From a virus (lineage: Duplodnaviria; Heunggongvirae; Uroviricota; Caudoviricetes), in IMG/VR virus record IMGVR_UViG_2724679293_000007, positions 1 through 64,000 of that record: a DNA stretch of 64,000 bases; one strand, 5' to 3'. The position numbers and the translations under genes were made by a program. Positions 9,725-62,382 of the stretch are shown here, in pieces. How positions within the stretch are numbered: position 1 is the stretch's first letter; each line of letters starts with the position of its first letter. Under the pieces are notes generated by a model. It had not been told where the DNA came from and did no database searches. It saw only the letters and a list, made by a program, of their open reading frames with translations.

Positions 9725-9741
9725 ATTGCTCTAATGTATTG
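9725..9741 (+). promoter_or_regulatory. C1 operator (ATTGCTCTAATGTATTG)
   Basis: 13/17 match to recalled C1 operator consensus ATTGCTCTAATAAATTT; upstream of lpa. Confidence 0.6.
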
Positions 9742-9811
9742 CTATTTATTTAATCGAGAGTATTATATTCCACGTTGATTAGTTGACATGGGCTAATCAG
9801 TAGGTGACAGG

Positions 9812-10264
9812 ATGTTACTTAACTGGCAGGGACGCCACTTCATGGAAATAAATCACTCACGAATAACATCGTACGAGATTGCGGATTACATGATCCGCAC
9901 TAAATCTCTTCTATCAGCGAAAGAACTCGCAGCAATTCTTGAAAAGGAATACCCGCACCTGGATGTCGATAAGCGCGATGTTTATCTGCGCTTAAAGGCT
10001 ATCGCTGTGTCTAAGTATTCGTCTGTTTTGATTGATGACAGTACACGCCCACGTAGATTTCAGATCCACTCTCTGAATCCTGAATTCTTTCGCCGCAGCC
10101 GCGCTCCGCGCCGGTTTGATGAAAAACTCCAGAACGAACTCTATATGACGCAGGACGAAAAGGAACGCCGGGAGCACCAGCCTTGGGTAATGGCGCGTCA
10201 ACTTTTCAATAAGGTGGCCCGTCAGCACCGTCATTACGGTAATGCCACATCCGCACGTATCTGA
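9812..10264 (+). CDS. lpa: Lpa, late promoter activator (gp10)
   Basis: 150 aa ORF between pdcB and pacA under a C1 operator, as in P1; alternative start at Met 11. Confidence 0.6.
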   Translation: MLLNWQGRHFMEINHSRITSYEIADYMIRTKSLLSAKELAAILEKEYPHLDVDKRDVYLRLKAIAVSKYSSVLIDDSTRPRRFQIHSLNPEFFRRSRAPRRFDEKLQNELYMTQDEKERREHQPWVMARQLFNKVARQHRHYGNATSARI

Positions 10265-10291
10265 TTGATTGCTTGCCCGTTCCGGGCCTTT

Positions 10292-10304
10292 TGACATGTG
10301 ACTT
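10292..10304 (+). promoter_or_regulatory. late-promoter element TGACATGTGACTT upstream of pacA
   Basis: Member of the recurring AAGTNACTT-like family seen upstream of several late genes in this window. Confidence 0.35.
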
Positions 10305-10349
10305 TCGTTACCCTCGCGTCAAAAAGAGTTTTTACGAAAGGAAGCATAA

Positions 10350-11543
10350 GTGACCTGGGACGATCACAAGAAGAATTTTGCTCGCCTGGCGCGAGATGGT
10401 GGTTACACCATCGCACAGTATGCCGCCGAGTTTAATCTTAACCCTAATACCGCACGTCGTTATCTCCGTGCCTTCAAAGAAGACACCAGGACAGCGGACA
10501 GCCGCAAGCCAAATAAGCCTGTCAGGAAACCACTAAAAAGCATGATCATTGATCACGCTAATGATCAACGTGCAGGTGATCACATTGTGGCTGAAATAGC
10601 TGAAAAACAAAGAGTTAATGCTGTTGTCAGTGCCGCAGTCGAGAACGCTAAGCGCCAAAATAAGCGCATAAATGATCGTTCTGATGATCATGACGTGATC
10701 ACCCGCGCCCACCGTACCTTACGTGATCGCCTGGAACGCGACACCCTGGATGATGATGGTGAACGCTTTGAATTCGAAGCTGGCGATTACCTGATAGATA
10801 ACGTTGAAGCGCGGAAGGCCGCGCGCGCTATGTTGCGTCGGTCCGGGGCCGATGTTCTGGAAACCACTCTTCTGGAAAAGTCTCTTTCTCATCTCCTTAT
10901 GCTGGAGAACGCCAGGGATACGTGTATTCGTCTGGTGCAGGAAATGCGCGATCAGCAAAAAGACGATGATGAAGGGACTCCGCCTGAATATCGTATCGCG
11001 AGCATGCTAAACAGCTGTTCCGCGCAGATAAGCAGCCTGATCAACACCATTTACAGCATCCGGAATAACTATCGAAAAGAAAGCCGGGAGGCGGAAAAGC
11101 ACGCTTTATCTATGGGGCAAGCTGGCATTGTTAAGCTGGCATACGAACGAAAGCGTGAAAATAACTGGTCAGTGCTGGAAGCAGCTGAATTCATCGAGGC
11201 GCATGGCGGGAAAGTGCCGCCCCTGATGCTGGAGCAAATCAAAGTCGATCTGCGTGCTCCTAAGACCAATACCGATGATGAGGAAAGGCAAACAGCCGTC
11301 GGTGGCCCTTCTCTTGAAGATCTGGACAAAGTTGCGCGAGAACGGGCCGCCAACCGCCGCGCCGATGCCGCATTGTGGATTGAGCAGCGTAGGGAAGAAA
11401 TCGCCGATATCGTTGATACAGGCGGTTATGGAGATGTTGATACTGAAGGTGTATCAAAAGACCCATGGCTGGAACAAGACCTGGACGAAGACGAGGAGGA
11501 AGACGAAGAAGTTACCCGCAAGCTATACGGGGATGATGATTAA
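10350..11543 (+). CDS. pacA: PacA, terminase small subunit (pac recognition)
   Basis: 397 aa, GTG start, [28 protein letters not shown]..; contains pac site; acidic C-terminus. Confidence 0.9.
10543..10701. other. pac packaging site: two clusters of TGATCA/G hexamers (Dam sites)
   Basis: Four hexamers at 10543-10582 and three at 10673-10701 (plus one at 10734) flanking a spacer, the 4+3 architecture recalled for P1 pac. Confidence 0.8.
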
Positions 11544-13027
11544 TGGCCAGAAGTTGCGTAACGGATCCACGTTGGCGCGAGCTGGTGGCGCTATATCGTT
11601 ATGACTGGATTGCGGCCGCTGATGTTTTGTTCGGCAAAACACCTACCTGGCAGCAGGATCTGATTATTGAGTCTGTGCAGGAACAGGGTAGCAAGACATC
11701 TGTTTCGTCTGGTCACGGTACCGGGAAATCAGACATGACTTCTATCATGATCATGTTGTTCATAATCATGTATCCCGGTGCCCGCGCCATTATCGTTGCG
11801 AACAAAATTCAGCAGGTAATGACCGGTATATTCAAGTACATCAAGATAAACTGGGCTACTGCCACCAGCCGTTTTCCATGGCTTGCTGATTATTTTGTCC
11901 TGACAGAAACCGCTTTCTATGAGGTTACTGGTAAAGGTGTATGGACTGTAGTACCGAAGGGCTTTCGTCTGGGAAGTGAAGAAGCTCTCGCCGGTGAACA
12001 CGCAGATCATCTTCTGTATATTATCGATGAAGCCTCCGGTGTCAGTGATAGAGCTTTCGGTATCATCACCGGTGCTCTTACCGGACAGGATAACCGCATC
12101 TTATTGCTGTCACAGCCTACACGCCCAAGCGGCTATTTCTACGATACACACCATAAACTGGCCAAGCGTCCTGGTAACCCTGATGGCGTTTATACGGCGA
12201 TCACGCTTAACAGTGAGGAATCACCGTTGGTAACGCCAGCATTTATCAAAATGAAGCTGGCGGAGTACGGCGGGCGTGATAACCCTATGTACATGATTAA
12301 GGTACGCGGCCTATTCCCTAAATCACAGGATGGCTTCCTTCTTGGACGTGATGAGGTTGAACGTGCAACGCGGCGGAAAGTCAAGATTGCAAAAGGATGG
12401 GGCTGGCTTGCATGTGTGGACGTTGCTGGTGGTACGGGACGAGATAAGTCCGTTATCAATATCATGATGGTGTCCGGCCAGCGAAATAAACGCCGTGTAA
12501 TCAACTATCGAATGCTGGAATACACAGACGTTACAGAAACGCAGCTTGCCGCCAAAATTTTCGCAGAATGTAATCCTGAGCGATTCCCAAATATCACCAT
12601 AGCGATAGACGGTGATGGGCTGGGTAAAGCAACGGCGGATCTGATGTACGAGTATTATGGTATTACCGTACAGCGTATACGCTGGGGTAAAAAGATGCAT
12701 AGCCGTGAAGATAAGAGCCTGTACTTTGATAAACGTGCTTATGCCAACGTTCAAGCCGCAGAGGCCGTAAAATCTGGTCGTATGAGACTGGATAAGGGTA
12801 ATGAAACTATTGAGGAAGCGTCGAAAATCCCTGTAGGGATTAACTCCGCAGGTCAATGGAAGGTGATGAGTAAGGAGGATATGAAGAAAAAACTCAACCT
12901 GCACTCACCAGACCATTGGGATACATATTGTTTCGCTATGCTGGCGGATTATGTTCCCCAGGATGAAGTGCTTAGCGTCGAAGACGAAGCGCAGGTTGAT
13001 GAAGCTCTGGCATGGCTTAATGAATAA
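11543..13027 (+). CDS. pacB: PacB, terminase large subunit
   Basis: 494 aa; start overlaps pacA stop (TAATG); position as in P1. Confidence 0.85.
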
Positions 13028-13051
13028 CTCATTGACCATGCCGGATAGAAA

Positions 13052-13903
13052 CTATTGCGCGCTTTCGGGGTTGTCGTTTACTGGCTGCCCCTTCTTAGTT
13101 TTACGGCTGCGCGTAACTGATGCGGCTGATTTGACCTTTTTCTCTTCGCGAGTGATGGCAATTTGTTTTTTTACATTTTCAATATCTGCCAGGCGATATA
13201 TTTTTGCCTGCGGCCAGCGGTCGCAGATGATCGGTTCTATAGAGTCATAAAGGCTAAATTTTGCTTTCTCGAATTCACCGTTGATGATGATTCCATCACG
13301 GAGAGTTTCATCGCAGATAAACACACCACACAGCGGCACATGGTAACTAACTGATTTACCATCATTGTAGTTAGGGCTACTGGAAATGTAATGGACGCGC
13401 AGCATTGTTTCGCTAAAGCCGTGTACACGCATACGGAATTTTTCATCCTCCGGGTACTGCTTCATTAGCTCTTTTGTTGCTTCCAGGTTCTCTATGTATT
13501 TCGCACTGTGCTCATTGATCCCCGCGCTTTTCTGGATGCGAATGTCCTTATCAATCAGGTGAATAATGCGGCCAGCGGTCATGTTGACGCTGTTCACAGC
13601 TTCTGTCTGATAAGTTGTAACCTTACGCACACCGCGAAGGATGTTAGGCACTGGATATAAAATAGTCTTTGGGATATTGAGGTCTGGGTACTGTTCCAGT
13701 TCTCGCGCCATTAAAGTCCATTTATCAATTTCAGCCTGAATGCTGTCCGTTTCTTTGAACGGCAGGACGACAACCGGGCGAACAGGACGACCGTCGCTGG
13801 CGGCATCAACGTGTTGGGCGCGTGCAACAGCTTTTTTTAGAAAGAGATCCCTGAAGCTGACGAACTCCTGGTACAGTTGTTCGCCGTAGACATAATTTAT
13901 CAT
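13052..13903 (-). CDS. c1: C1 repressor of lytic functions
   Basis: 283 aa MINYVYGEQLYQEFVSFRDLFLKKAVARAQ.. matches recalled P1 C1; cognate operators across the window. Confidence 0.9.
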   Translation of the reverse strand: MINYVYGEQLYQEFVSFRDLFLKKAVARAQHVDAASDGRPVRPVVVLPFKETDSIQAEIDKWTLMARELEQYPDLNIPKTILYPVPNILRGVRKVTTYQTEAVNSVNMTAGRIIHLIDKDIRIQKSAGINEHSAKYIENLEATKELMKQYPEDEKFRMRVHGFSETMLRVHYISSSPNYNDGKSVSYHVPLCGVFICDETLRDGIIINGEFEKAKFSLYDSIEPIICDRWPQAKIYRLADIENVKKQIAITREEKKVKSAASVTRSRKTKKGQPVNDNPESAQ

Positions 13904-13997
13904 TGATCCTCCTCCAGAATTGACATGGCCAACAACTCACAGCGGATTACACTGGGAGTTGTTGGCCACCATTATAGAAGGATCCAACGAAAATAAT

Positions 13998-14014
13998 AGA
14001 TTTATTAGTGCATT
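13998..14014 (-). promoter_or_regulatory. weak C1 operator-like site
   Basis: Reverse complement AATGCACTAATAAATCT, 14/17 to consensus; between coi and c1. Confidence 0.3.
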
Positions 14015-14223
14015 TATTGTGAGTCTGGCTGGTTAGTGGCCATGAGATATTCGATTGTGTCAGTGAGATCATCCAGGTCGTCTTGGGTGATGCGGTACTC
14101 CTGATTGGATATCTTTGAGTAGTGTTCAGCAATGGCGCGGGCAGCGTCGGTTTCGGCGGGGTCTACAGATAAAGCGTTAGAGCAATGTCTAACGTCGTCG
14201 ATGGTTGGTGGAATGAAAGCCAT
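14014..14223 (-). CDS. coi: Coi, C1 inactivator
   Basis: 69 aa ORF immediately upstream of c1 on same strand, size and position as P1 coi. Confidence 0.75.
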   Translation of the reverse strand: MAFIPPTIDDVRHCSNALSVDPAETDAARAIAEHYSKISNQEYRITQDDLDDLTDTIEYLMATNQPDSQ

Positions 14224-14461
14224 AATTATGCCTCACTGTATTGACAACACAGAGCCTGAAGCTCTGACCTACTGTTTCACCCATGATCCATGCTGGGGTA
14301 ATCTAACAACATTGCGCTGTGTGTAAGATGAGCAATGCATAGCTGTAATGCCGTTGTATAAGGTTTCCCTGTTTGCTCATTTCCTTCTGAGCCGCTCTAC
14401 AACGCTGAAGACACATTAAATAGTGAATCCAAAGTCGTATTACGAAACGGCGGCAAAACTA

Positions 14462-14478
14462 TAATTTATTAGAGCAAT
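14462..14478 (-). promoter_or_regulatory. C1 operator (reverse complement ATTGCTCTAATAAATTA)
   Basis: 16/17 match to consensus; upstream of coi-c1 operon (Op99 cluster in P1). Confidence 0.65.
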
Positions 14479-14544
14479 TGTCAAACAACTATGAAAAACA
14501 ATCCAGTTTTTGGCTGGTGGAGTGGGATTTTTCTCTCAAAATTT

Positions 14545-14561
14545 ATTGCTCTAATAATTCT
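14545..14561 (+). promoter_or_regulatory. C1 operator (ATTGCTCTAATAATTCT)
   Basis: 14/17 match to consensus, opposite orientation to site at 14462. Confidence 0.6.
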
Positions 14562-14604
14562 TGATTTTTATGCGCAGCTGGACGTAAACTCCTCTTCGGA
14601 CCTA

Positions 14605-14638
14605 ATAACTTCGTATAGCATACATTATACGAAGTTAT
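14605..14638. other. loxP: loxP recombination site
   Basis: Exact ATAACTTCGTATA-GCATACAT-TATACGAAGTTAT, 13-bp inverted repeats around 8-bp spacer. Confidence 0.97.
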
Positions 14639-14710
14639 CTTAAGGGTTATTGAACATGATCAATTTACCTGTAAATCCATACAGTTCAATACCTTATCAG
14701 GTCAAATAGT

Positions 14711-14730
14711 GATCACTTGATCATTTGATC
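14711..14730. promoter_or_regulatory. cluster of three GATC (Dam) sites upstream of cre
   Basis: GATCACTTGATCATTTGATC; P1 cre promoter region recalled as methylation-sensitive. Confidence 0.45.
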
Positions 14731-14827
14731 AAGGTTGCGCTACGTAAAATCTGCGAAATGTTGGCAGTGTTAGTGCTCCAGATTTCGCGTAGCGCACTTA
14801 GCACCACCAATCAATCAGAGGTGAAAA

Positions 14828-15049
14828 ATGGGATATTCAGCTGCTAAAGTGTCCACTCATATTGAGCTTGAGAAAAACCGTGGTTACTGGCGGGCAAAAG
14901 GGTTTGATCGTGATAGTTGTCAACTGTCATTATCGCGCGGTGAAGAGAAAATAGAACGCACGCGCGGTCGCTGGCGTTTCTATGACGAGAACCATAAACA
15001 GGTAAAGGCAGAGCCGATCCTGTACACTTTACTTAAAACCATTATCTGA
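14828..15049 (+). CDS. hypothetical basic protein (73 aa) between loxP and cre
   Basis: ORF track; GAGGTG RBS; function unknown. Confidence 0.4.
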   Translation: MGYSAAKVSTHIELEKNRGYWRAKGFDRDSCQLSLSRGEEKIERTRGRWRFYDENHKQVKAEPILYTLLKTII

Positions 15050-15056
15050 GTGTTAA

Positions 15057-16088
15057 ATGTCCAATTTACTGACCGTACACCAAAATTTGCCTGCATTACC
15101 GGTCGATGCAACGAGTGATGAGGTTCGCAAGAACCTGATGGACATGTTCAGGGATCGCCAGGCGTTTTCTGAGCATACCTGGAAAATGCTTCTGTCCGTT
15201 TGCCGGTCGTGGGCGGCATGGTGCAAGTTGAATAACCGGAAATGGTTTCCCGCAGAACCTGAAGATGTTCGCGATTACCTTCTATATCTTCAGGCGCGTG
15301 GTCTGGCAGTAAAAACTATCCAGCAACATTTGGGCCAGCTAAACATGCTTCATCGTCGGTCCGGGCTGCCACGACCAAGTGACAGCAATGCTGTTTCACT
15401 GGTCATGCGACGGATCCGAAAAGAAAACGTTGATGCCGGTGAACGTGCAAAACAGGCACTGGCGTTCGAACGCACTGATTTCGACCAGGTTCGTTCACTC
15501 ATGGAAAATAGCGATCGCTGCCAGGATATACGTAATCTGGCATTTCTGGGGATTGCTTATAACACCCTGTTACGTATAGCCGAAATTGCCAGGATCAGGG
15601 TTAAAGATATCTCACGTACAGACGGTGGGAGAATGTTAATCCATATTGGCAGAACGAAAACGCTGGTTAGTACCGCGGGTGTAGAGAAGGCACTTAGCCT
15701 GGGGGTAACTAAACTGGTCGAGCGATGGATTTCTGTCTCTGGTGTGGCTGATGATCCGAATAACTACTTGTTTTGCCGTGTCAGAAAAAATGGCGTAGCT
15801 GCGCCATCTGCCACAAGCCAGCTATCAACTCGCGCCCTGGAAGGGATTTTTGAAGCAACTCATCGATTGATTTACGGCGCTAAGGATGACTCTGGTCAGA
15901 GATACCTGGCCTGGTCTGGACACAGTGCCCGTGTCGGAGCCGCGCGAGATATGGCCCGCGCCGGAGTTTCAATACCGGAGATCATGCAAGCTGGTGGCTG
16001 GACCAACGTAAATATTGTCATGAACTATATCCGTAACCTGGATAGTGAAACAGGGGCAATGGTGCGCCTGCTGGAAGGTGGCGATTAG
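15057..16088 (+). CDS. cre: Cre tyrosine site-specific recombinase
   Basis: 343 aa MSNLLTVHQNLPALPVDATSDEVRKNLMDMFRDRQAFSEHTWKMLLSVCRSWAAWCKLNNRKWFPAEPEDVRDYLLYLQARGLAVKTIQQHL.. recognised as P1 Cre; loxP 419 bp upstream. Confidence 0.98.
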   Translation: MSNLLTVHQNLPALPVDATSDEVRKNLMDMFRDRQAFSEHTWKMLLSVCRSWAAWCKLNNRKWFPAEPEDVRDYLLYLQARGLAVKTIQQHLGQLNMLHRRSGLPRPSDSNAVSLVMRRIRKENVDAGERAKQALAFERTDFDQVRSLMENSDRCQDIRNLAFLGIAYNTLLRIAEIARIRVKDISRTDGGRMLIHIGRTKTLVSTAGVEKALSLGVTKLVERWISVSGVADDPNNYLFCRVRKNGVAAPSATSQLSTRALEGIFEATHRLIYGAKDDSGQRYLAWSGHSARVGAARDMARAGVSIPEIMQAGGWTNVNIVMNYIRNLDSETGAMVRLLEGGD

Positions 16089-16105
16089 CCATTAACGCGC
16101 AAATG

Positions 16106-16122
16106 ATTGCTCTAATTCTTTG
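16106..16122 (+). promoter_or_regulatory. C1 operator (ATTGCTCTAATTCTTTG)
   Basis: 13/17 match to consensus; upstream of cra. Confidence 0.55.
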
Positions 16123-16138
16123 ATATTTATGGCGGCAT

Positions 16139-16450
16139 ATGAGAAAGGATTTCAACATCGACGGAAAATATGTAGTGCTGTCTGTGAGCACTAATATTCA
16201 GTCGCCAGCCGTCATTGTCACTGTAAAGCTGAGCGATAGAATGCCTGATATTGACTCAATATCCGTTGCGTTCCCTGTCAGAAGTATGCGTAGTGCTGAA
16301 CATTTCGTGATGAATGCCACCGAGGAAGAAGCACGGCGCGGTTTTGCTAAAGTGATGTCTGAGTTTGGCGAATTTTTGGGGCACGTTGACAAAGCCCTCT
16401 CAATCAGTTCAGCAAGGTCCAAAGCATTAACAGCTTCCATGATGAAATAA
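16139..16450 (+). CDS. cra: Cra-like protein (cre-associated), 103 aa
   Basis: ORF directly downstream of cre as in P1. Confidence 0.55.
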   Translation: MRKDFNIDGKYVVLSVSTNIQSPAVIVTVKLSDRMPDIDSISVAFPVRSMRSAEHFVMNATEEEARRGFAKVMSEFGEFLGHVDKALSISSARSKALTASMMK

Positions 16451-16581
16451 AAAAAGCCTGGCAAGGAGCCAGGCTGCACAAAAGAGCGGGTTTGTATTCC
16501 GCATCCAATCAATCAAGAAGGAGTATAGCACACAGGTACTGAAGTGAAAAAATGTGATTCGCGATAAACAAAATCCCTACC

Positions 16582-16610
16582 ATTGCTCTAATTGATTGCT
16601 ATAATTGAGC
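16582..16610 (+). promoter_or_regulatory. tandem overlapping C1 operators (ATTGCTCTAATTGATTG and ATTGCTATAATTGAGC)
   Basis: Two operator-like copies offset by 13 bp upstream of ref, as recalled for P1 Op2a/b. Confidence 0.6.
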
Positions 16611-16696
16611 CGCAGTTTTTGTCAACTACGAAGACGTTGCCATTACTTAACTCCTTGACATCATTGGCGGCCATCAGGCCGCCTTTTTTTTGCCAT

Positions 16697-17257
16697 ATGA
16701 AAACAATCGAACAAAAAATTGAACAGCACCGTAAGTGGCAGAAGGCAGCCAGAGAACGAGCGATCGCTCGGCAACGGGAGAAGTTGGCTGATCCGGCCTG
16801 GCGAGAATCTCAATATCAGAAAATGCGGAATACTATCGACCGCCGTATCGCTAAACAGAAAGAGCGCCCACCAGCCAGCAAAACGCGGAAAAGCGCGGTA
16901 AAAATAAAATCTCGTGGCTTGAAGGGACGAACACCGACGGCGGAGGAGCGGCGCATAGCCAATGCTCTTGGCGCTCTCCCCTGCATTGCCTGCTATATGC
17001 ATGGAGTAATATCTGAAGAGGTGTCTCTGCACCATATCTCCGGTCGTACCGCGCCTGGTTGTCACAAAAAGCAATTGCCACTTTGTAGATGGCACCACCA
17101 GCATGCAGCACCGGCTGAAGTAAGAGAAAAATACCCCTGGCTGGTCCCTGTTCATGCCGATGGTGTGGTTGGAGGCAAGAAAGAATTCACCTTGCTGAAC
17201 AAGTCAGAGATGGAGTTGCTGGCTGACGCCTATGAGATGGCAAACAGCATGCACTAA
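16697..17257 (+). CDS. ref: Ref, recombination enhancement function (HNH nuclease)
   Basis: 186 aa from ATG 16697 (ORF track starts at upstream ATG 16592); Cys/His-rich HNH-like C-terminal half; C1-operator controlled. Confidence 0.8.
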   Translation: MKTIEQKIEQHRKWQKAARERAIARQREKLADPAWRESQYQKMRNTIDRRIAKQKERPPASKTRKSAVKIKSRGLKGRTPTAEERRIANALGALPCIACYMHGVISEEVSLHHISGRTAPGCHKKQLPLCRWHHQHAAPAEVREKYPWLVPVHADGVVGGKKEFTLLNKSEMELLADAYEMANSMH

Positions 17258-17292
17258 TAAATATATTATTTTTAATCTGAAATAATTGACAA

Positions 17293-18088: not shown

Positions 18089-18234
18089 CCGACTATTTGT
18101 TTAAAAACGGAGATCGTTGTTTACCATTTCTCCGTTTTCTATCAAGAGGGGCAACCTCTTTAAGAGAGTCAAAATTGTTTCTCCTTCATCGCTATCGCTG
18201 ATAACATCAGCTCAAAAAACGAAGGAGTTTTTCT

Positions 18235-18840: not shown

Positions 18841-18960
18841 CCCTACAGCTCCAAAATGCTGAAAAGATCACAAATGGTTTAATCTCCAAATGTTAAACAT
18901 GATTACTTCTGCATAAAACTTTTTCAGCCCGGTCGAGTGCCGGGCATAAACTCGGAAAGT

Positions 18961-19209
18961 TTAATCAGCATTCAGAAGCAACGCATTATCTATGATGATC
19001 TGCTCCCATTCTTCGAATGCCCGGTCGCGGACGCCCTGGGGGACACTGTTTGTTTTGAAATCGACGACCGTCCGCCATTTCCCGTCCGGACGGTACATGC
19101 GCAGAGCTTTACTTCCCCCTTCCCTGCGCACCTCAACGTTATGCTTATCAGCAAACTCTTGTAATGCTCGTAGCGTCCCATGCTTTACTGTGTAGTATCG
19201 CTTTTTCAA
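18961..19209 (-). CDS. lxc: Lxc-like small protein (82 aa)
   Basis: Size and position downstream of ulx/darB; named by recalled P1 synteny. Confidence 0.4.
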   Translation of the reverse strand: MKKRYYTVKHGTLRALQEFADKHNVEVRREGGSKALRMYRPDGKWRTVVDFKTNSVPQGVRDRAFEEWEQIIIDNALLLNAD

Positions 19210-25600: not shown

Positions 25601-26447
25601 TTTTCTCAGCCATCTCTGCCGGATGTTTGCGCATCAGCACCACATCTACGACCGTACTGGTCCCGTTTGCGTCAAAAGTACCGGTAGGCAAGCGGTGGGC
25701 ACCAAGAAATTCAGCTTTCCGTGATAGGCGCAGGCGTAACCGCTTCATGTTTGAACCTGAAACAATGGACGGCGGCACAATCACGCACATGAATCCGCCT
25801 GGCTTTATCTTGTCCAGCATGCGGAGCATGAAGTAAGAACCCATGTCCGTTTCTTCTGCGTAAGGCTTATCGATGTTGCGTGTGTTATCACGACCACCGA
25901 ACGGAACGTTACCCACAACATGGTCGAATGAATCGTTAGGCGTGCTTACAGCCAGCTGTTCGAACGGGGAAATCTGTACGCTGTCTTCCGGGTGTAACAG
26001 CTGGTTTATACGACCGGAAACACTGCTGATCTCAGTTGCGGTCATCACCGTACCAACCGGTTTTGTCTCATTAAAAACGCCGGTGCCCGCCGATGGTTCC
26101 AGAGTGTTACCTACGTCCGCGCCATAGAGCTTCATGATCTCCCAGACACCTTCAGCGATAGGCTTTGGTGTGTAATATTCGGAGACGGACCCGCCAATGC
26201 CGCCTTCACCGGTGTACCCAGCCAGGATCTGGCGCTGTTCATCTGTCAGTGTCGCGCCGTCCACCAGCGAATTAAGCAAATCTATCGCCTTCTGATTCGC
26301 CTCCCGGCGCAGTCGGTCATAGCTTTTGCCTTCCACCTTTTCCACGCCGTATTTAATCGGCGCTCGGTGAGATGTTATTGCCCTAATGTATTTCAATATT
26401 TCGCTGACACTTGAACAGCGAAACACCCCCATAGATAGCTTGTTCAT
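19680..26447 (-). CDS. darB: DarB, giant antirestriction protein with methyltransferase and SF2 helicase domains
   Basis: 2255 aa; N-terminal MTase-like motifs (GNVPFGG), Walker A GFGTGLGKTT and DEGH box; size equals recalled P1 DarB. Confidence 0.85.
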   Translation of the reverse strand: MNKLSMGVFRCSSVSEILKYIRAITSHRAPIKYGVEKVEGKSYDRLRREANQKAIDLLNSLVDGATLTDEQRQILAGYTGEGGIGGSVSEYYTPKPIAEGVWEIMKLYGADVGNTLEPSAGTGVFNETKPVGTVMTATEISSVSGRINQLLHPEDSVQISPFEQLAVSTPNDSFDHVVGNVPFGGRDNTRNIDKPYAEETDMGSYFMLRMLDKIKPGGFMCVIVPPSIVSGSNMKRLRLRLSRKAEFLGAHRLPTGTFDANGTSTVVDVVLMRKHPAEMAEKIPLVDESTLELANVLWPTFISGKWFEKDGRRFVHGTQEKGFQGRIEVRADGQIDNQALKAKLIHRFESRIDWSLLDMAEPSPTADVVDEGEMRLINGVWQKYAGGRWIEADAGKELKIDAASYGADSWEALQRNLTTTEGRLGMTFTQMANVRDKYTTSISDDMVQLVDWINSQPEKYRERLYRGAMIGRMLIEYQDMKAAGHSAEQIEQQRLSLVSRLQAEIDRFGNPGRGPIAKLSGSGARAWFAFRGAIKLDGTISDELTGKLVTHDSSASYDSTSYQDTLRYLYSDLTRDPIQLDDFRLAFTGELPASDEELLNLLASTPGIAVSPYGGIVPFARATSGDINEIVVPKQEFLATLPDGPVKNNVLNQLAAIEEKRIKTPAENIRFKLNSRWFDRSVILEFLQENGYPDLRYVQSVQLEGDEMVSDTYHGGDGLFVGHRYGVVQRKDKETGEIRYEWDRKSGENATGFPAQLEKYLNGARIGGKDSATANGYREQMALLEDQFNKWIKTHDRYDELVAKYNDVFNSNIPYEHSGDPLGLKGLSGKRQPFDYQNSEVRRLSEDGRGILGFGTGLGKTTTALALEAFNYENGRSTRTAYVVPKSVLENWYYEAKEFLSEAAFSNYLFVGLDVLMDGDQIRQVPVLDENGKPVLGTDGTPLMRDALKLADEATITARMNAIPHSNYRAVVFTKEQYARIPLRDDTVDEHAQDMLYDFVAAGRVASAMDSDSHRKEAARRRVLSEYSDTGTEKAEKYPYFEDMGFDSVIADEGHNYRNSYKNGREASQLAYLPTSAVAQSARDMAIKNAYLMKKNGGRGPVLLTATPVVNTPIDAYNMLSHVLPKEYWQKMGIYGPDDFVKFFGKTRLETVQKISGEVEEKMALVGFENLDALRGIFHRWVTLKTAEDVKDTVEIPELDEHQQDAPLTEEQLAAYEELRQQAEAAAKANNGVTTSVNEDGVIEHEKARPIFSIIRDMDRVCTDMDLYYRRITYRFLPEYADAVQQLADSLPKQATSEDDDSDDSITQQSQYSLIDKGEFIQLQVPEAFEQEVNKRLARFGIDEQTVTHPVTPKYAKLIATLKEFFPEGKQIIFTDEKTQHQKLKRIICNALNLEPSKVGILNAQTVAEAGKTGQKLKAVKPPKELPDEPTDAQIAKYNEQMALYDAYIAQQNEMSLGGLEKIAADFQEGRTPIIICNKKAEVGINLHRGTTDIHHLTLPWTPASIAQRNGRGARVGSNRASVRVHYYCGKGSFDEYRLKTLKRKAGWISDILRSDKSEMENADANDMIEMQMYTAKDDGERLAMMQVQMDKAKAAQRARQKEQATIDLQNYIKAQHAAGEDVEVLTAELERSKAELEKTTTEVAKFKQAVMAKAADNADWKARWGSVHHTDRTLLAQYRASLKSAIQRKANISQAISRYEKLLNRTQKAATDIKRLRPLVEDAINKGILDVDPDLVNHASEFLVIGDRSWRVGQYYDCAGDIVRIKSLDFDSQRADVEIIFTFKGTKSGNWDVKTLDKQVDVTPDEDAVMQKISGGVSIAGINDIVSCDDFYRFQQRGMIKITDSYGVQTTESGYSIDFVGTYTDPLKHAVYPDRRDGALKSSIAKWVLGMMSEGNNRQIRSAEAFLVELFGSNYGDVIASYGDTLSPEAIQEKIADAIARMPEKTSQGSTRNGDSELEVTNAIFGTNEFRASDYEITTAQFGTIGIYSNKDEIKQAMDAASARIAAERKANLNHAVAALTQSWVTAIRVAATTGKITPAIADVVNDGSKFMDAYKMDAVQLPSAYGQLSYRMTYNLVSMFTDLAILGLVDLNEVTPELLSMRKNHVEILQRINTVLAGRTDEEKQADADRINLALGNITEEEIAARNEKQEELSSIQGDATSIAQSLGLNYRVSTADLKMMYAPKFAAGEVFGLQEASGMKGVLFRAKDAIKAKFGARWLPAKAKNSDFPGNWWIIETKHNVADVLAVIQQYA

Positions 26448-30226: not shown

Positions 30227-30243
30227 ATTGCTCTAATTGATTT
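30227..30243 (+). promoter_or_regulatory. C1 operator (ATTGCTCTAATTGATTT)
   Basis: 14/17 match to consensus, 20 bp upstream of ssb start. Confidence 0.6.
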
Positions 30244-30262: not shown

Positions 30263-30751
30263 GTGGCACAACGCGGTGTAAACAAAGTCATCCTGATTGG
30301 TACCCTGGGGCAAGACCCGGAGATCAGGTATATACCAAATGGCGGCGCGGTCGGAAGACTCAGCATCGCAACGAATGAATCATGGCGCGACAAGCAAACG
30401 GGCCAACAGAAAGAGCAAACAGAATGGCATAAAGTCGTCTTGTTCGGAAAACTTGCTGAAATTGCGAGTGAGTATTTACGAAAAGGTTCTCAGGTATACA
30501 TCGAAGGGAAACTTAAAACCCGTAAGTGGACAGATGACGCCGGTGTAGAACGTTACACGATGGAAATTATCGTCAGCCAGGGCGGCACCATGCAAATGAT
30601 CGGCGCTCGCCGTGACGATTCACAGTCCTCAAATGGCTGGGGGCAATCAAACCAACCTCAAAACCACCAGCAATACAGTGGTGGCGGTAAACCTCAGAGC
30701 AACGCCAATAACGAACCTCCAATGGACTTTGACGACGATATTCCGTTTTAG
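30263..30751 (+). CDS. ssb: single-stranded DNA-binding protein
   Basis: 162 aa, GTG start; [51 protein letters not shown].. and acidic tail DFDDDIPF closely resemble E. coli SSB. Confidence 0.95.
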
Positions 30752-30791
30752 GATTTACCTAAGACGTTTATGTAATTAATTATCTATCAGG

Positions 30792-30818
30792 CCCCTGTTA
30801 ATACAGGGGATTTTTATT
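30792..30818 (+). terminator. intrinsic terminator (CCCCTG-TTAATA-CAGGGG + T-run)
   Basis: Perfect hairpin then ATTTTTATTT after ssb stop. Confidence 0.6.
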
Positions 30819-30999
30819 TCTAGTAACTATAAGAGGTGTTAATTATTAATTGACAATCTTTAGTGTTTCGCGCACCTTGCAAGTATCCAATATTTACTGA
30901 TTGTGGATGCATAAAGAAGATCCACAGCGTTACAAATTTGTATTTCTTTCTTCAGCAATTAAGCAGGCGACTTGCTCTATCCTGCCCAAAGGAACACGT

Positions 31000-56676: not shown

Positions 56677-56805
56677 TTACCCGATTCTACGAGTTGTCAT
56701 TTGTTACCGGTCAGTCTACACATTTCAGATGCTGCGTTAAAAAACCCAAGTACTTCAAGTAGCACATCGTCATCAACACCCAGCCCCAAGATACGGTGAT
56801 AAAAT

Positions 56806-57873
56806 TCAAGCCTTAAGAGGCTTTGTGTATGTTCGTGTAATCCATCCAGTAATAAACTCGTCCCCTGATTTAACCTGCACGAAAAGCCATTGGCGATCTT
56901 TTTTATCTAAAACAGCCACTATAGTATTTTTGCCAATGCATTCAATCACCTCACTATTTATAGAAGGACTGACGTGTAATCTTACGTTCTCACCAGTTAT
57001 AAAACGAAAACCATTGAGATCTTCCCAACTAATTTCTTTGTTTTCTTTAATTAATTGTTGTTTTGATATTGGTTTATCCTCAAACAGAGATATAAAATAT
57101 GATTCTGCCTTGTGTATTCCCAGCAAGGTTTTCTCTTTTCCGTAATCAATAAAAGCACCAAACACAACTTGAGAAAATATAACCATTAGTAACCATTGCA
57201 GTGGATAAGGAAGCTCTTTAAATGAATCAACAAACTTTGAGCTAGGTTTATTTAATCCTTTATTTTGAACATTACTTTTGGTGTGTGATGTTTCAGTAGC
57301 ACCTTCAGCATAAGCCTGCGCAATAGATGAAATCCCCTGCTCTATTATTTGATGTAATGAAGCATTTCTTGTTCTAGCATAGTGATCTAGTACTTTCTTT
57401 ATGTCTTGGCTTACATCTGTTTTATAACTTGCACTTTGTTGTAATTCTTTAAGTATCGCTTGCATGTTATTTAAACCAGCTTGCTTATTAAGCACCTCAA
57501 GCTGTTTTCGTAATGGCATAGCTATTTCGGCCTGTTTCCTTAGCATTTGAATATATCTATTTGCGTCATGAGGGAAAAGAGCCTGAGTCTGTTTCTGTAA
57601 AATCGCGATATGTTCACGATACTTGCTGCCTATTCCAGCCAAGTTCGGCATACTAGCCAATTGTTTTCGAAGAGAGTTACTAATTACAGCTTGTCTATTC
57701 AATCTTGTCATATTTTGAAAAGAATGTTTTTCTATTCCTAATTGTTTTTGCAAGATCGCTACGTGATCTTTGTATGATGGAATGAGCACTGACTGTTTAT
57801 ACAGTAACTTCAACTCATTAGAATTAGTAATTTTTGTCATATTATTCCATTTATATAATAGAATATTACGCAA
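56806..57873 (-). CDS. membrane-anchored protein with internal repeats and C-terminal SH3b-like domain (355 aa), AT-rich
   Basis: Repeated HxAILQKQ / LRKQL segments, one TM helix (LQWLLMVIFSQVVFGAFIDY), C-terminal pattern like bacterial SH3 (GFRFITGENVRLHVSPS..WLFVQVKSGDEFITGWITRTY). Confidence 0.55.
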   Translation of the reverse strand: MRNILLYKWNNMTKITNSNELKLLYKQSVLIPSYKDHVAILQKQLGIEKHSFQNMTRLNRQAVISNSLRKQLASMPNLAGIGSKYREHIAILQKQTQALFPHDANRYIQMLRKQAEIAMPLRKQLEVLNKQAGLNNMQAILKELQQSASYKTDVSQDIKKVLDHYARTRNASLHQIIEQGISSIAQAYAEGATETSHTKSNVQNKGLNKPSSKFVDSFKELPYPLQWLLMVIFSQVVFGAFIDYGKEKTLLGIHKAESYFISLFEDKPISKQQLIKENKEISWEDLNGFRFITGENVRLHVSPSINSEVIECIGKNTIVAVLDKKDRQWLFVQVKSGDEFITGWITRTYTKPLKA

Positions 57874-57914
57874 CCAATGTTTTATTGATTGCGTTAATCT
57901 TTAACACAGAAAGA

Positions 57915-58391
57915 TCATTTGCCTCGTTTAATACATCCATCCATTTTGGCTTGTTGATACAACTTACTTAGCCCAGAAAGAGGGAATGTAGCAATTTTTT
58001 CATTATCAACATAAGCATCAATCATATTAGCATTTGAATCTGCTGCATCTTGCCAAAAGGCATACCACCAAGAATCTCCAACCATTGATCCAAGATTGCT
58101 AAAAGGATATTGCTCACCATCTATAGTTAATACTATTTTATTCTTGTCAGCATTATACTCTTTTTTATTATTCGACGAACTTAGCAACAAGCCTAAACTA
58201 CCTGCACTATCTGGTGAACCATACATGAATCCCATATCACATAAAAAACTTATCTTATCACCATTATGATTATGGATTGTATATTCTCTCCCCCCTCTCT
58301 CTTCAATTACATTCCATTGTAGAGGATCAATTTTTGCAAATGTTCCTGCTGAAACTAACGATACAAATAATAAAAACCATCTCATATTCAT
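57915..58391 (-). CDS. secreted/periplasmic protein with signal peptide (158 aa), AT-rich
   Basis: N-terminus MNMRWFLLFVSLVSAGTFA then charged mature region; two Cys. Confidence 0.55.
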   Translation of the reverse strand: MNMRWFLLFVSLVSAGTFAKIDPLQWNVIEERGGREYTIHNHNGDKISFLCDMGFMYGSPDSAGSLGLLLSSSNNKKEYNADKNKIVLTIDGEQYPFSNLGSMVGDSWWYAFWQDAADSNANMIDAYVDNEKIATFPLSGLSKLYQQAKMDGCIKRGK

Positions 58392-58413
58392 TCTTTTCGC
58401 TTCTTATCTGTAA

Positions 58414-58764
58414 TTATTCTGCAATATCATTTGCCCATTGCACGGCAGCAAAATGAGTACCCAAACCACTCAGGAAAGCAATTACCCCCAAAACAATACT
58501 TGCTGCTGTTGATTCAAACAAAGTACCAATACTATAGCCAATAGCTCCCCATACTAAGCTAAATACAATCATCAATGGTATTGCCAGAAATTTTATTCTT
58601 AAACTAAAAATCAGTCCAAGAAAAGAACCGCCAAAGGCCCACCATGATTTAGACATTAAACCTATCAGTATTGACAGAATTCCTATTTCAATAAAGAGAA
58701 TATTAGATTGCTCTTCATTGAATTTCGCATTTGTTACACCTTTACGAACATGTTCAGATGACAT
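58414..58764 (-). CDS. integral membrane protein (116 aa, about 3 TM helices), AT-rich
   Basis: Three hydrophobic segments; first gene of the three-gene minus-strand operon. Confidence 0.5.
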   Translation of the reverse strand: MSSEHVRKGVTNAKFNEEQSNILFIEIGILSILIGLMSKSWWAFGGSFLGLIFSLRIKFLAIPLMIVFSLVWGAIGYSIGTLFESTAASIVLGVIAFLSGLGTHFAAVQWANDIAE

Positions 58765-58910
58765 GATTAACTATCTCCTGCCACAGATAAAACGCCTTAA
58801 AATAACATTTTGTAGCATAAAGTTTCACCATGCAATGGTCAAAATCTTTGACCCATATCAATTAAACTCATACATTTTAGTTACCAGGGAAATAATTTAC
58901 ATGGTTGCAA

Positions 58911-58927
58911 GTTGCTCTAATTATTTT
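58911..58927 (+). promoter_or_regulatory. C1 operator (GTTGCTCTAATTATTTT), Op51-like
   Basis: 13/17 match; between divergent cargo operon and c4-icd-ant. Confidence 0.6.
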
Positions 58928-59125
58928 ATTTTTTTAGCTTCATATGCTACATTAACTTGCTTGCGTGCTAATGCATTTTCGGTTTATCCTAAACAGGCAT
59001 CTTAGTAAAACGGATGCCGGGATTGGAACCCCGGATAATGCAAAAGGCGACACAGACGCCAAAAGCGTCTTTTTTTGTGTCATGCCATCGCACAGCCATA
59101 CGTAGCACATAGCTCCGAGATCAAT

Positions 59126-59205
59126 GGTAGTGCTGGCTGGGCTGCCGAAAGGCAGGCCGGTTCCCTTTTGCGCCGGTAGTTCCAACCCAGTCAGTGCTAC
59201 CGCCA
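59126..59205 (+). ncRNA. c4: c4 antisense repressor RNA (immI), tRNA-like precursor
   Basis: About 77-80 nt; long terminal stem (59126-59141 pairs with 59186-59201) ending GCCA, internal GNRA hairpin CTGCC-GAAA-GGCAG, exposed GGUUCC elements complementary to GGAACC targets at 59021-59030 and 59211-59219. Confidence 0.55.
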
Positions 59206-59261
59206 TTGAGATTGGAACCTCACGCGGTAGCTCCTTAAATTAGCAAAAGGAGGCTGCCATT

Positions 59262-59483
59262 GTGGCTACTATCCCTACCCCTACTCATCCTGAATTTATC
59301 TGGCGCTTTTACTCCTGCCAAAAACACCACTATCACTTCGTTATCGCAGCAACAGAAGACGAAGCACGCTCTCAATTGCCTGATGGCCCCTGCATTTTTA
59401 CTGCCCGTTTTTCAACTAACTCGCGCAATTCACTTAGTTACTGGAACCTCCCCTTCTCTGCCGACGTTCAGGGGGGTTTATGA
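59262..59483 (+). CDS. icd: Icd (interference with cell division), 73 aa
   Basis: GTG start with AAGGAGG RBS; 73 codons overlapping ant start (ATGA), as recalled for P1. Confidence 0.55.
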   Translation: MATIPTPTHPEFIWRFYSCQKHHYHFVIAATEDEARSQLPDGPCIFTARFSTNSRNSLSYWNLPFSADVQGGL

Positions 59484-60523
59484 AAAAACCTCTCGTCACC
59501 CGGAATGAAATAGCCGAAGCGATCGCCCTGCATACTGCCTGTATGCCGACACGGGAGATCCCCGGCGCAATTGCCAACTATTTCATGATAACCAAGCGTT
59601 TTTATACCCGGATAGATAAGGCTGTGATCAACAGGCTACTGATAGCCGAGATCAGGGATTATTTGATTGAACAAGGACGTCTACGTTACGCAACAGTGGC
59701 AGCAGAAATGAGAAAGGAGGCACATAGAATGACCGGTAATAATTTGAATGTTGAAAAACCAGCACCTGTTGCTTCAGCTACGCCAGCACCAGCCGTGAAT
59801 GTCATCCCCAACACCGGAGACACAATCGACAGCCAAACATTGTTGAAGATGGTCAATGAGGCACGCAAGTTATGTGGAGAACCATTGGTTAGAAACAATA
59901 AATTCATCGAAAAAATACTCGACGAATTAGAAGGTGAGGACGGTTACACAAAAAGTGCAACCGTGCCGCCAGGTGGCGGTACGCCTATGGTTGTCATAAC
60001 CATGACCTACAAACAAGCCCTGCGAGTTGCCGCGCGCGAGTCAAAAGCGGTCCGCCGTTCGCTGATCGACAAACTGGAAGAATTGCAGCAGGCAAACTCC
60101 CCTGCCCCATCGATCCCCCAAACATTACCAGAAGCCCTACGCCTGGCTGCCGAGTTAGCAGAACAGAAAATGCAGTTGGAACAACAGCTGGTGGCCGCAG
60201 CCCCTAAAGTCGATTTTGCCGACCGGGTATCAGTGGCCAATGGAATCCTGATCGGGAACTTTGCAAAGGTCGTTGGACTTAAGCAAAACGCCCTTTTCTC
60301 ATGGTTGCGCCAGAACGGCATTCTCATGGCTTTTGGTGCGCGCAAAAACGTACCGCGCCAGCAGTACATTAATGCCGGGTATTTCACGGTGAAAGAAGTG
60401 GTGCTGGATGATGAAAATGGCTACCAGATACGGCTGACGCCCCAATTAACGGGTAAAGGCCAGCAGTGGTTAACTCGCAAGCTACTTGATGCTGGTTTGT
60501 TAAAACCAGTAGCAATAGGTTAA
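59480..60523 (+). CDS. ant: Ant antirepressor (Ant1), KilA-C/Ant C-terminal domain
   Basis: 347 aa; C-terminal 135 aa homologous to KilA C-terminus; downstream of c4 and icd. Confidence 0.75.
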   Translation: MKKPLVTRNEIAEAIALHTACMPTREIPGAIANYFMITKRFYTRIDKAVINRLLIAEIRDYLIEQGRLRYATVAAEMRKEAHRMTGNNLNVEKPAPVASATPAPAVNVIPNTGDTIDSQTLLKMVNEARKLCGEPLVRNNKFIEKILDELEGEDGYTKSATVPPGGGTPMVVITMTYKQALRVAARESKAVRRSLIDKLEELQQANSPAPSIPQTLPEALRLAAELAEQKMQLEQQLVAAAPKVDFADRVSVANGILIGNFAKVVGLKQNALFSWLRQNGILMAFGARKNVPRQQYINAGYFTVKEVVLDDENGYQIRLTPQLTGKGQQWLTRKLLDAGLLKPVAIG

Positions 60524-60600: not shown

Positions 60601-60617
60601 TTTGCTCTAATAAATTT
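60601..60617 (+). promoter_or_regulatory. C1 operator (TTTGCTCTAATAAATTT), Op53-like
   Basis: 16/17 match to consensus, 70 bp upstream of kilA. Confidence 0.7.
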
Positions 60618-60686
60618 CGTTTTCTAAGTGCAAAGAATCACCATTTCGAGCTGGTGATTGAAGGTTGATGCAAATTTGGAGAAAAA

Positions 60687-61487
60687 ATGCAACAAACATT
60701 CAATGCGGATATGAATATATCAAACCTTCATCAAAATGTCGATCCTTCAACCACTCTGCCCGTTATTTGTGGTGTTGAAATTACGACCGACCGCGCTGGC
60801 CGTTACAACCTTAATGCTCTACACAGAGCGAGCGGACTCGGTGCCCATAAAGCGCCAGCTCAATGGCTAAGAACGCTGTCAGCTAAACAGCTCATCGAAG
60901 AGCTTGAAAAAGAAACTATGCAGAATTGCATAGTTTCGTTCGAAGGCCGTGGCGGCGGCACTTTTGCCCATGAATTGCTCGCTGTGGAGTACGCAGGCTG
61001 GATTTCTCCCGCGTTTCGGCTGAAGGTAAACCAGACATTTATCGACTATCGAGCTGGAAGATTACAACCTGCTATTCCGCAGAGTCTCCCTGAAGCTCTC
61101 CGTTTGGCTGCCGACCTGGCAGAGCAAAAGCAACGGCTGGAGCAAAAAATGCTTATGGATGCACCTAAAGTCGAATTCGCCGAACGCGTTGCTACCGCCA
61201 GCGGGGTTCTAATCGGCAACTATGCCAAAGTGCTCGGCCTGGGCCAAAACTATCTCTTCACCTGGTTGCGTGATAACGGAATTCTGATCGCAACCGGAGA
61301 ACGCAGGAACGTCCCCAAACAAGAATACATCTCCCGTGGGTATTTCCCCCTTAAAGAAACCGTGATCGATACAAGCAATGGAAGCAGGATTTCTTTCACG
61401 ACTCGTATAACCGGCAAAGGTCAGCAGTGGCTGATGAAGCGATTGCTTGATGCTGGTGTGCTGGTACCTGTCGCGGCAACGCGCTAA
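60687..61487 (+). CDS. kilA: KilA (KilA-N plus KilA-C domains)
   Basis: 266 aa; C1-operator controlled; precedes repL as in P1. Confidence 0.75.
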   Translation: MQQTFNADMNISNLHQNVDPSTTLPVICGVEITTDRAGRYNLNALHRASGLGAHKAPAQWLRTLSAKQLIEELEKETMQNCIVSFEGRGGGTFAHELLAVEYAGWISPAFRLKVNQTFIDYRAGRLQPAIPQSLPEALRLAADLAEQKQRLEQKMLMDAPKVEFAERVATASGVLIGNYAKVLGLGQNYLFTWLRDNGILIATGERRNVPKQEYISRGYFPLKETVIDTSNGSRISFTTRITGKGQQWLMKRLLDAGVLVPVAATR

Positions 61488-61516
61488 CAGACGTAGTAAG
61501 AACCACCAGCATTGTA

Positions 61517-62362
61517 ATGCTGGCTAAAGTCACTTTCCTGAGCTGTATAACGATGAGCGATTTTACTTTTTCTGGCTATGAATTGGCCTGCTTTGTAACA
61601 CACTCCGGTCTATCCCGTAGCGCCGGGCATATCCTGTCGCAATGTGCAAATCTCGCGGCAACAACCAGTGAATACTTCATTCACAAGCCTCACCGCCTGA
61701 TCGCGGCAGAAACTGGTTATAGCCAATCAACCGTCGTTCGTGCATTCCGTGAAGCTGTAAACAAAGGAATCCTGTCTGTAGAGATTGTTATCGGCGATCA
61801 CCGTGAACGTCGCGCTAACCTGTACCGGTTTACACCATCCTTTTTGGCCTTCGCACAACAAGCCAAAAATGCGCTGATTGAAAGCAAATTAAAGATCTCT
61901 TCAGCGGCAACCAAGGTTAAAGCTGTTCTCGCTAAGACATTGGCTTTATTTAATTTTTTATCCACACCCCCATGTCAAAATGATACCCCCTCCCCCTGTC
62001 AGGATGACGTGGCAATAAAGAATAAGAAGTCACAAGTTAAAAAAACAAAAAGATCAGTTTCCGGCGGTGCCGGAACGAGCAGACTCAAAAAATTGACTTC
62101 ATGGATCGCTGAGGCAAAAGCAAAGGCTGACAATCTGCGGTTATCCAAAAAACGCGCTCAAAAACATGAGTTCAAGCAGAAAGTAGAGGCGGCAGCGCGG
62201 AAATATGCTTACCTGAAGAACAAGCGTTCTCCTGATATTTGCGGGATATCAAACTTCGATAATCTGCCGCATTGCATGACGGTAAACAAAGCTCTTAATG
62301 CGGTTTTAGCCAAAAATAAAGATAACGAACAATGGGGTATACCGGCAGGATTCAGAGGGTGA
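61517..62362 (+). CDS. repL: RepL, lytic replication initiator (oriL inside gene)
   Basis: 281 aa, size and position after kilA match recalled P1 RepL. Confidence 0.75.
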   Translation: MLAKVTFLSCITMSDFTFSGYELACFVTHSGLSRSAGHILSQCANLAATTSEYFIHKPHRLIAAETGYSQSTVVRAFREAVNKGILSVEIVIGDHRERRANLYRFTPSFLAFAQQAKNALIESKLKISSAATKVKAVLAKTLALFNFLSTPPCQNDTPSPCQDDVAIKNKKSQVKKTKRSVSGGAGTSRLKKLTSWIAEAKAKADNLRLSKKRAQKHEFKQKVEAAARKYAYLKNKRSPDICGISNFDNLPHCMTVNKALNAVLAKNKDNEQWGIPAGFRG

Positions 62363-62365
62363 TAG

Positions 62366-62382
62366 ATTGCTCTAATCTGGAG
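62366..62382 (+). promoter_or_regulatory. C1 operator (ATTGCTCTAATCTGGAG)
   Basis: 11/17 match, conserved ATTGCTCTAAT half; just after repL stop. Confidence 0.5.

Follow-up and report, generated by a model that had tools for sequence, protein, structure and literature searches.

Which genes does the C1 immunity repressor control in the element represented by IMG/VR virus record IMGVR_UViG_2724679293_000007 (Duplodnaviria; Heunggongvirae; Uroviricota; Caudoviricetes), and does its reach extend to genes that lie beside cargo? The question is raised by positions 1 to 64,000 of that record, the whole 64,000-nucleotide stretch referred to here as the window, along which copies of an asymmetric operator motif are dispersed. 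An initial annotation had read these copies as C1 operators that bring lytic and early genes into the immunity circuit, and had placed those before ssb, after repL and beside c4 beyond the expected set, the last of them possibly gating a divergent AT-rich operon. The window belongs to a P1-like phage-plasmid that has about 93-98% identity to P1, P7 and SJ46, and the feature is the known P1 C1 regulon in a close relative: the wiring of ssb, of the post-repL position and of c4 is already present in the GenBank annotations of P1 and P7. The motif copies very probably constitute the C1 operator set of this element, inherited site by site from an ancestor shared with P1.

The P1 genome record AF234172 annotates Olpa, Oc1a-e, Oref, Omat, Ossb (Op21), Oc4 (Op51), OrepL (Op53) and Orlf (Op55) as C1 binding sites, and C1 has been described as binding 22 dispersed operators with the same consensus as the window motif (PMC8546580). 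A search of the window for this consensus, ATTGCTCTAATAAATTT, with at most three mismatches yields nine matches where 0.33 are expected, and none of 100 shuffles reached nine; the exact 10-mer TTGCTCTAAT also occurs at 16107 and 62367. The 20 monovalent operators annotated in P1 also served to construct a weight matrix, which detects 12 sites at 14 bits or more (0.6 expected) and 19 at 10 bits or more (7.45 expected). The scans cover the window, and the P1 operators Odmt, Oban, O26, Oppp, OpmgRa/b and OpmgT fall outside it. Of the 12 sites in the higher class, ten fall on positions that P1 annotates as bound by C1, and 58911, the equivalent of Oc4/Op51, is one of the ten. Positional orthology, assessed from a blastn map and side-by-side sequences, places 9725, 13998, 14170, 14462, 14545, 16582, 17248, 30227 and 60601 on annotated P1 operators, and these window operators are identical to the P1 ones or one base off, at equal spacing to the genes.

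These figures bear directly on whether the motif could be no more than an AT-rich word that recurs by chance, the mobile element being AT-rich itself. The operator core, TGCTCTAAT, differs by one base from the extended -10 box (TGnTATAAT), which accounts for look-alikes such as the one at 16595, and the weak sites at 16595, 58861, 3569 and 6298 are within the range expected by chance. For the strong sites, however, chance is refuted both by the excess of matches over expectation and by the coincidence of most of them with annotated P1 sites, and as an explanation of the motif set its probability is vanishingly small. The initial annotation was therefore right in taking the set as real, shuffles and matrix alike placing it far above chance, and right in kind in reading the copies as C1 operators, their positions matching annotated P1 operators.

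Its inventory of sites needs more revision. All eleven of the coordinates that it gave carry the motif core, with one mismatch to the consensus at 14462(-) and 60601, two at 14545 and 30227, three at 9725, 13998(-), 16582 and 58911, four at 16106, and six at 16595 and 62366. The full 17-bp consensus around the core TGC(T/A)CTAAT is matched across the set except at 16595 (10.4 bits) and 62366 (5.4 bits); the count of ten good matches was thus overstated by these two, which have the core only, while the remaining coordinates do carry the motif. The site at 13998(-), which had been set down as weak, is identical to P1 Oc1a/Op99a, and 16595, taken for a tandem partner of 16582, corresponds to the -10 region of P2ref. 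Nor are the ssb, post-repL and c4 sites additions to the expected set, being counterparts of Op21, Op55 and Op51 as annotated in AF234172. Absent from the earlier list were Oc1c at 14170(-), Omat/Op2b at 17248(+), the weak Oc1b half-site at 13987, and a match at 26377(+).

The cognate repressor and co-repressor are both encoded by the window element itself, c1 and lxc having been found in it. Since its C1 shares 282 of 283 residues with P1 C1.100 and lxc is present, the DNA-binding specificity should equal that of P1 C1. In P1, C1 binds each asymmetric 17-bp operator, the co-repressor Lxc strengthens or stabilises the complex, and the occupied operator shuts RNA polymerase out of any promoter overlapping or adjoining it. 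In the prophage, C1 on its operators would silence or dampen lpa, coi/c1, ref, mat, ssb, c4-icd-ant and kilA-repL, and at sites identical to those of P1 its binding and repression in the window element may be presumed from the P1 annotation. When set beside the P1 regulon (Op2a/b, Op21, Op51, Op53, Op55, Op94 and Op99a-e), the window has the same repressor and the same 17-bp asymmetric consensus, and its operators stand in the same places with respect to lpa, c1/coi, cre, ref, mat, ssb, c4 and kilA-repL; eight operators are identical and Ossb is one base different. For OrepL, the window sequence is present in 38 of 40 P1-like contigs and differs by one base in the other two. The comparison establishes that the operators, their positions relative to genes and the nearly identical repressor are conserved, and where the cassette boundaries lie. 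The coordinates of these and other features are collected in the table.

Table. Operators, genes and P1-aligned segments of the window, with strand and supporting data.
Feature	Position	Strand	Sequence, score or other support
Olpa (Op94), upstream of lpa	9725..9741	+	ATTGCTCTAATGTATTG, as P1 89904-89920; 19.0 bits
Bivalent Oc1ab (Op99a/b), c1 promoter	13987..14014	Oc1a 13998-14014 (-)	Identical to P1 94166-94193; Oc1a 22.9 bits
Oc1c (Op99c)	14170..14186	-	ATTGCTCTAACGCTTTA, as P1 94349-94365; 14.4 bits
Oc1d (Op99d), coi/c1 promoter P1coi	14462..14478	-	Identical to P1 94641-94657; 25.1 bits
Oc1e (Op99e), beside lox on cra/cre side	14545..14561	+	Identical to P1 94724-94740; 24.2 bits
Operator-like site 16 nt upstream of c8 start	16106..16122	+	ATTGCTCTAATTCTTTG; P1 has ATTGCTATAATTATTTG; 18.3 bits; no annotated P1 operator
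Oref (Op2a), operator of ref	16582..16598	+	Identical to P1 1962-1978; 20.6 bits
P2ref -10 region, not operator	16595..16611	+	TGCTATAAT; 6 mismatches; 10.4 bits; same P1 sequence annotated as -10 at 1980-1985
Omat (Op2b), before mat	17248..17264	+	CATGCACTAATAAATAT, identical to P1 site 2628-2645; 20.0 bits
Motif match inside 5' end of darB	26377..26393	+	ATTGCCCTAATGTATTT; 16.5 bits; unannotated
Ossb (Op21), 19 nt upstream of ssb	30227..30243	+	ATTGCTCTAATTGATTT; one base off P1 Ossb 21015-21031; 22.8 bits
Oc4 (Op51) equivalent, c4-icd-ant operon	58911..58927	+	GTTGCTCTAATTATTTT; 18.9 bits; aligns with Oc4 of P1, P7, SJ46
OrepL (Op53), operator of kilA-repL	60601..60617	+	TTTGCTCTAATAAATTT, as P1 49810-49826; 23.5 bits
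Orlf (Op55) remnant	62366..62382	+	11-bp core ATTGCTCTAAT only; 3' half CTGGAG; 5.4 bits vs 17.2 for P1 Orlf
c1, C1 immunity repressor gene	13052..13903	-	282/283 residues as P1 C1.100; collinear with P1 93231-94082
lxc (bof), C1 co-repressor gene	18961..19209	-	82-residue open reading frame; position collinear with P1 lxc 9750-9998
ssb, single-stranded DNA-binding protein gene	30263..30751	+	161/162 residues as P1 Ssb; PHROG 44
Three-gene AT-rich cargo in P1 simABC slot	56806..58764	-	116-residue membrane protein; 158-residue protein; 355-residue SH3_3 protein
immI leader: isrK-like element 58997-59075 and C4 antisense RNA 59120-59207	58997..59207	+	Rfam RF01394, 58.5 bits; RF01695, 76.7 bits
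icd and ant1/ant2 antirepressor genes	59262..60523	+	Pfam ANT domain, 1.3e-30; collinear with P1 icd, ant
kilA and repL, lytic replicon	60687..62362	+	Open reading frames; Pfam KilA-N and ANT domains; collinear with P1
81-residue membrane protein gene	62413..62658	+	Likely start ATG 62413, GGAG before; full-length PHROG 3772 match, function unknown
hok/sok type I toxin-antitoxin locus	62671..62845	+	Rfam sok RF01794, 113.9 bits; hok/mok annotated in matching phage records
Segment aligned to P1 85182-86535	4479-5834		blastn
Segment aligned to P1 86842-94800	6663-14621		blastn
Segment aligned to P1 1-3469	14622-18089		blastn
Segment aligned to P1 9734-21537	18945-30749		blastn
Segment aligned to P1 24245-31240	33139-40134		blastn
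Segment aligned to P1 35856-46629	45926-56705		blastn
Segment aligned to P1 48497-51585	59289-62376		blastn

The site close upstream of ssb was correctly located. The operator ends 19 nt ahead of the GTG start codon at 30263, with the same gap in P1, and it is Ossb/Op21; a C1 operator before ssb is thus already annotated in P1. The P1 record describes a monovalent, C1-controlled Ossb, the former Op21, 20 bp before ssb, and cites the older entry PP1OP21A. A simple consensus promoter scan, which is weak evidence either way, gave no candidate around Ossb, while P1 annotates the promoters P1ssb and P2ssb on a near-identical sequence. Op21 was reportedly found biochemically in 1989, and P1 ssb is said to have been reported later as repressed in lysogens. 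A full-text literature search for Op51 and Op21 returned nothing specific.

The site at 58911 does lie between c4 and the divergent AT-rich operon, more precisely between the minus-strand open reading frame (ORF) start at 58764 and the C4 RNA, and in P1 Oc4 (former Op51) sits between the divergent sim genes and c4. Compared with P1, the window site differs at 3 of 17 positions and stands in another variant of immI, with an isrK-like element and C4, and an unrelated cargo of three genes has taken the place of sim. Comparison with Oc4, with Op(c4) of P7 and with the SJ46 site indicates that the core and the promoter-proximal right-hand bases are conserved and the left side is not. The P7 record (AF503408) has Op(c4), Op(rep) and Op(rap) at the same three places around immI and the lytic replicon, and, as in the window, a cargo other than sim, in P7 a membrane or lipoprotein one, lies divergent from c4; the P7 cargo genes (upf50.0, upf50.5) differ from those of the window, and its Op(c4) reads TCTGCTCTAATAAATTT. 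Cargo swapping beside Op(c4) is therefore already documented. An operator of at least 12 bits is present at this position in 39 of 40 P1-like contigs, the count being of those with enough upstream sequence and the set the same as that used for OrepL, across many unrelated left flanks; the core TGCTCTAAT is invariant on the c4 side, and positions 1-3 and the left flanks vary.

The window operator, isrK-like leader and C4 RNA are 88-94% identical to those of a second c4/ant cassette in RCS47 and JL22 and to the immI leader of D6. RCS47 and JL22 have it as an additional copy between pacB and c1, next to immC (the RCS47 cassette operator sits 4 bp past pacB), whereas in the window it occupies the canonical immI position. 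Similarity to the RCS47/JL22 cassette begins at 58912, one base from the first position of the operator, so that the operator is the left edge of the immI cassette and not part of the cargo. With D6, the similar stretch does not start until 58996, past the operator, and the D6 locus examined has no C1-type operator of at least 9 bits. The immI leader variant in which the isrK-like element lies directly upstream of the C4 RNA is common to the window, D6 and the RCS47/JL22 second cassette.

The cargo itself, at 56806-58764, has no P1 homology by blastn and recurs at 99-100% identity in many P1-like plasmids of E. coli. Its proteins yield a weak SH3_3 Pfam match and PHROGs 15014, 3429 and 7086, every one of unknown function; the 158-residue protein begins with a hydrophobic stretch resembling an export signal, and Pfam and PHROGs provide no basis for a role in defence or resistance.

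Could the operator at 58911 be bidirectional, so that C1 bound there also represses or gates the divergent cargo between 58764 and 56806? It is the sole strong C1 site in the 147-bp intergenic region, P1 uses C1 operators in both orientations elsewhere, and the predicted -35 of P1 PsimA is only 5 bp from Oc4, so that some cross-talk is conceivable. The promoter geometry of the window argues otherwise: between the operator and the -35 edge of the only leftward candidate (TTGACC-17-TATGCT, 58842-58814) there are 69 bp, the operator being upstream of this candidate and neither overlapping it nor lying downstream of it, while a rightward candidate (TTTACA-17-AATTAT, 58896-58924, 9/12) overlaps the operator. 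The origin of the site speaks against the proposal as well, similarity of the immI cassette beginning at the operator and the left flank being unrelated between cargo types; the operator was not inherited with the cargo, but is common to the RCS47, JL22, P1, P7 and SJ46 cassettes, which lack this cargo. The distance from operator to divergent gene is variable (70 bp to simA in P1, 147 bp in the window, 282 bp in P7), and no second strong operator is close by for looping, 58861 having 10.5 bits, in the chance range. Promoter geometry, cassette edge, near-universal conservation, variable distance and the want of a looping partner together leave the gating of cargo by C1, as suggested in the initial annotation, unsupported; a bidirectional operator is improbable, and so, to the same degree, is direct control of the cargo by C1. 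The operator at 58911 would instead belong to the c4-icd-ant cassette and act on rightward transcription.

A comparable question arises for the site directly after repL and ahead of the gene for a small membrane protein, the position of which had been given correctly, although it is only a remnant of Orlf, and Op55 is known in P1. There, Orlf (former Op55) is annotated at 51575-51591, 4 bp past repL; in the window, the site begins 3 nt past the repL stop codon, whose end is at 62362, and P1 homology stops at 62376, inside the operator, with CTGGAG as the 3' half where P1 has TATAAC. Orlf is in this way cut to its 11-bp core, and rlfAB, which follow repL in P1, are replaced by the 81-residue protein gene and the hok/sok locus downstream of it; P7 has a full-length Op(rap), ATTGCTCTAATTATAAC, followed by rapAB. 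The post-repL site would thus be what was left of Orlf/Op55 once the rlfAB module had been replaced by the module of small membrane protein and hok/sok. Among 80 P1-like viral contigs picked through the repL end, with a search pattern that itself required ATTGCTCTAAT, the truncated allele is present in 66 and the P1/P7 allele (TATAACC) in 14. After the core, the truncated allele reads CTGGAGTCACC(T/A)GGCGTTTTCAG, a shared 23-nt stretch that is followed by several different cargos.

It may still be argued that the core at 62366 is a working C1 operator which, as a roadblock or promoter block, directly controls the 81-residue protein gene and hok/sok. P1 Orlf itself has a poor 3' half, and the allele junction falls exactly at the core end, which could reflect selection to keep the core; the exact core is kept in all 80 contigs, a conservation that is not independent of the search pattern. 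The six mismatches in 17 positions are all in the 3' half, however, the remnant has 5.4 bits against at least 14.4 for every stand-alone P1 operator, and no promoter candidate overlaps the site, so that direct control from this core appears unlikely. Since the simple consensus scan gave no promoter or terminator candidate between repL and the 81-residue protein gene, read-through from kilA already explains any C1 dependence; if this gene is controlled by C1 at all, control would be exerted mainly through read-through from the OrepL-controlled kilA promoter.

Several points weigh against reading the motif copies as an operator set inherited site by site from the common ancestor. The sites at 62366 and 16595 fail the operator model, and P1 has no annotated operator that corresponds to 26377 or 16106. 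The Oc4 equivalent departs from P1 Oc4 at G1, T12 and T14, and the predicted promoter hexamers may stand at another distance from it than in P1. Binding of C1 and its effects on expression in the window element are proposed here from sequence comparison, and the experimental status of each P1 operator is taken from GenBank notes.

Two of the sites just mentioned could add to the P1 map. The one before c8 has a perfect core in the window and a TATAAT variant in P1; when P1-like viral contigs are anchored on the 3' end of cre, 43 of 49 have kept the core, three have the P1 variant and three have CTCTGAT. The matrix cannot separate the alleles (17.8 bits for the P1 variant, 18.3 for the window), its pseudocounts under-penalising the invariant C7 and hence producing near-equal scores. 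It is plausible that 16106 represents an additional operator in most P1-like elements. The match inside darB at 26377 belongs to a class, sites of at least 16 bits, of which 0.15 are expected per window, and it is identical at P1 17166-17182, where nothing is annotated. Whether most P1-like regulons deviate from the P1 map through both an extra c8 operator and a degraded Orlf, the latter seen in 66 of 80 relatives, is a joint reading that can be offered only tentatively and with considerable doubt.

Two module junctions coincide with an operator core, one where the c4/ant cassette begins on its left side, the other at the switch between rlfAB and hok. Use of the conserved core as a microhomology point for module exchange would be one interpretation, of low probability. 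The broader notion of operators as recurrent recombination junctions was considered and retained only as an improbable reading: only two junctions lie at a core, and the recurrent cargo junction after repL is 23 nt further downstream, after CTGGAGTCACCTGGCGTTTTCAG.

The setting of these sites is a mosaic. By megablast of 9000-17000, this part of the window is about 98% identical to vB_EcoM-813R1 and SJ46 and about 93% to P1 and P7, with pacAB, c1, cre and lpa as the annotated genes under the matches. The annotated P1 genome AF234172 was pieced together from five stretches and the window aligned to it by blastn, which revealed collinearity at 93-98% identity, broken only by discrete replaced segments; P1 homology is missing at 1-4478, 18090-18944, 30750-33138, 56706-59288 and 62377-64000. 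P1-like phage-plasmids have eight variable regions, and the five non-P1 segments of the window correspond to five of these, pmgT..humD, res-mod, isaA-isaB, simABC and rlfAB (PMC9603915). No end-to-end plasmid match to the window was found in PLSDB, where the best records span 79-85% of 40000-64000; CP099272 is identical to the window in the sim-slot region and different elsewhere.

Within these segments, 1-4478 is a swapped-in variable region in which lambdoid accessory genes (EaA in matching records) replace the P1 sequence upstream of pmgT. No operator of at least 12 bits occurs there, the sole site being 3569 at 10.8 bits, and P1 OpmgRa/b and OpmgT have no counterpart in it. The EcoP1 res-mod genes (P1 3469-9734) are missing at 18090-18944, where about 0.85 kb of unrelated sequence, including a 201-residue ORF (18235-18840), stands instead. 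An Rfam IS009 match of 192.7 bits lies at 43111-43309, within the tail-fibre assembly region of the invertible segment. At the right end, a 204-residue ORF at 63350-63964 (-) has a weak PHROG match to nucleoside triphosphate pyrophosphohydrolase (MazG-like) and is not in CP099272 at that position.

For the P1 family, the c8-upstream site and the truncated Orlf amount to small refinements of the P1 regulon, with little weight for discovery overall; if the former is functional, the putative lysogeny-establishment gene c8 would come under direct C1 control. Cargo in the sim and rlf slots has been inserted right beside C1 operators, with no evidence of control by them. The value of the comparison is one of annotation, in that it indicates which P1 operators persist, have changed or are missing in a lineage of P1-like plasmids that is common in clinical and environmental settings.

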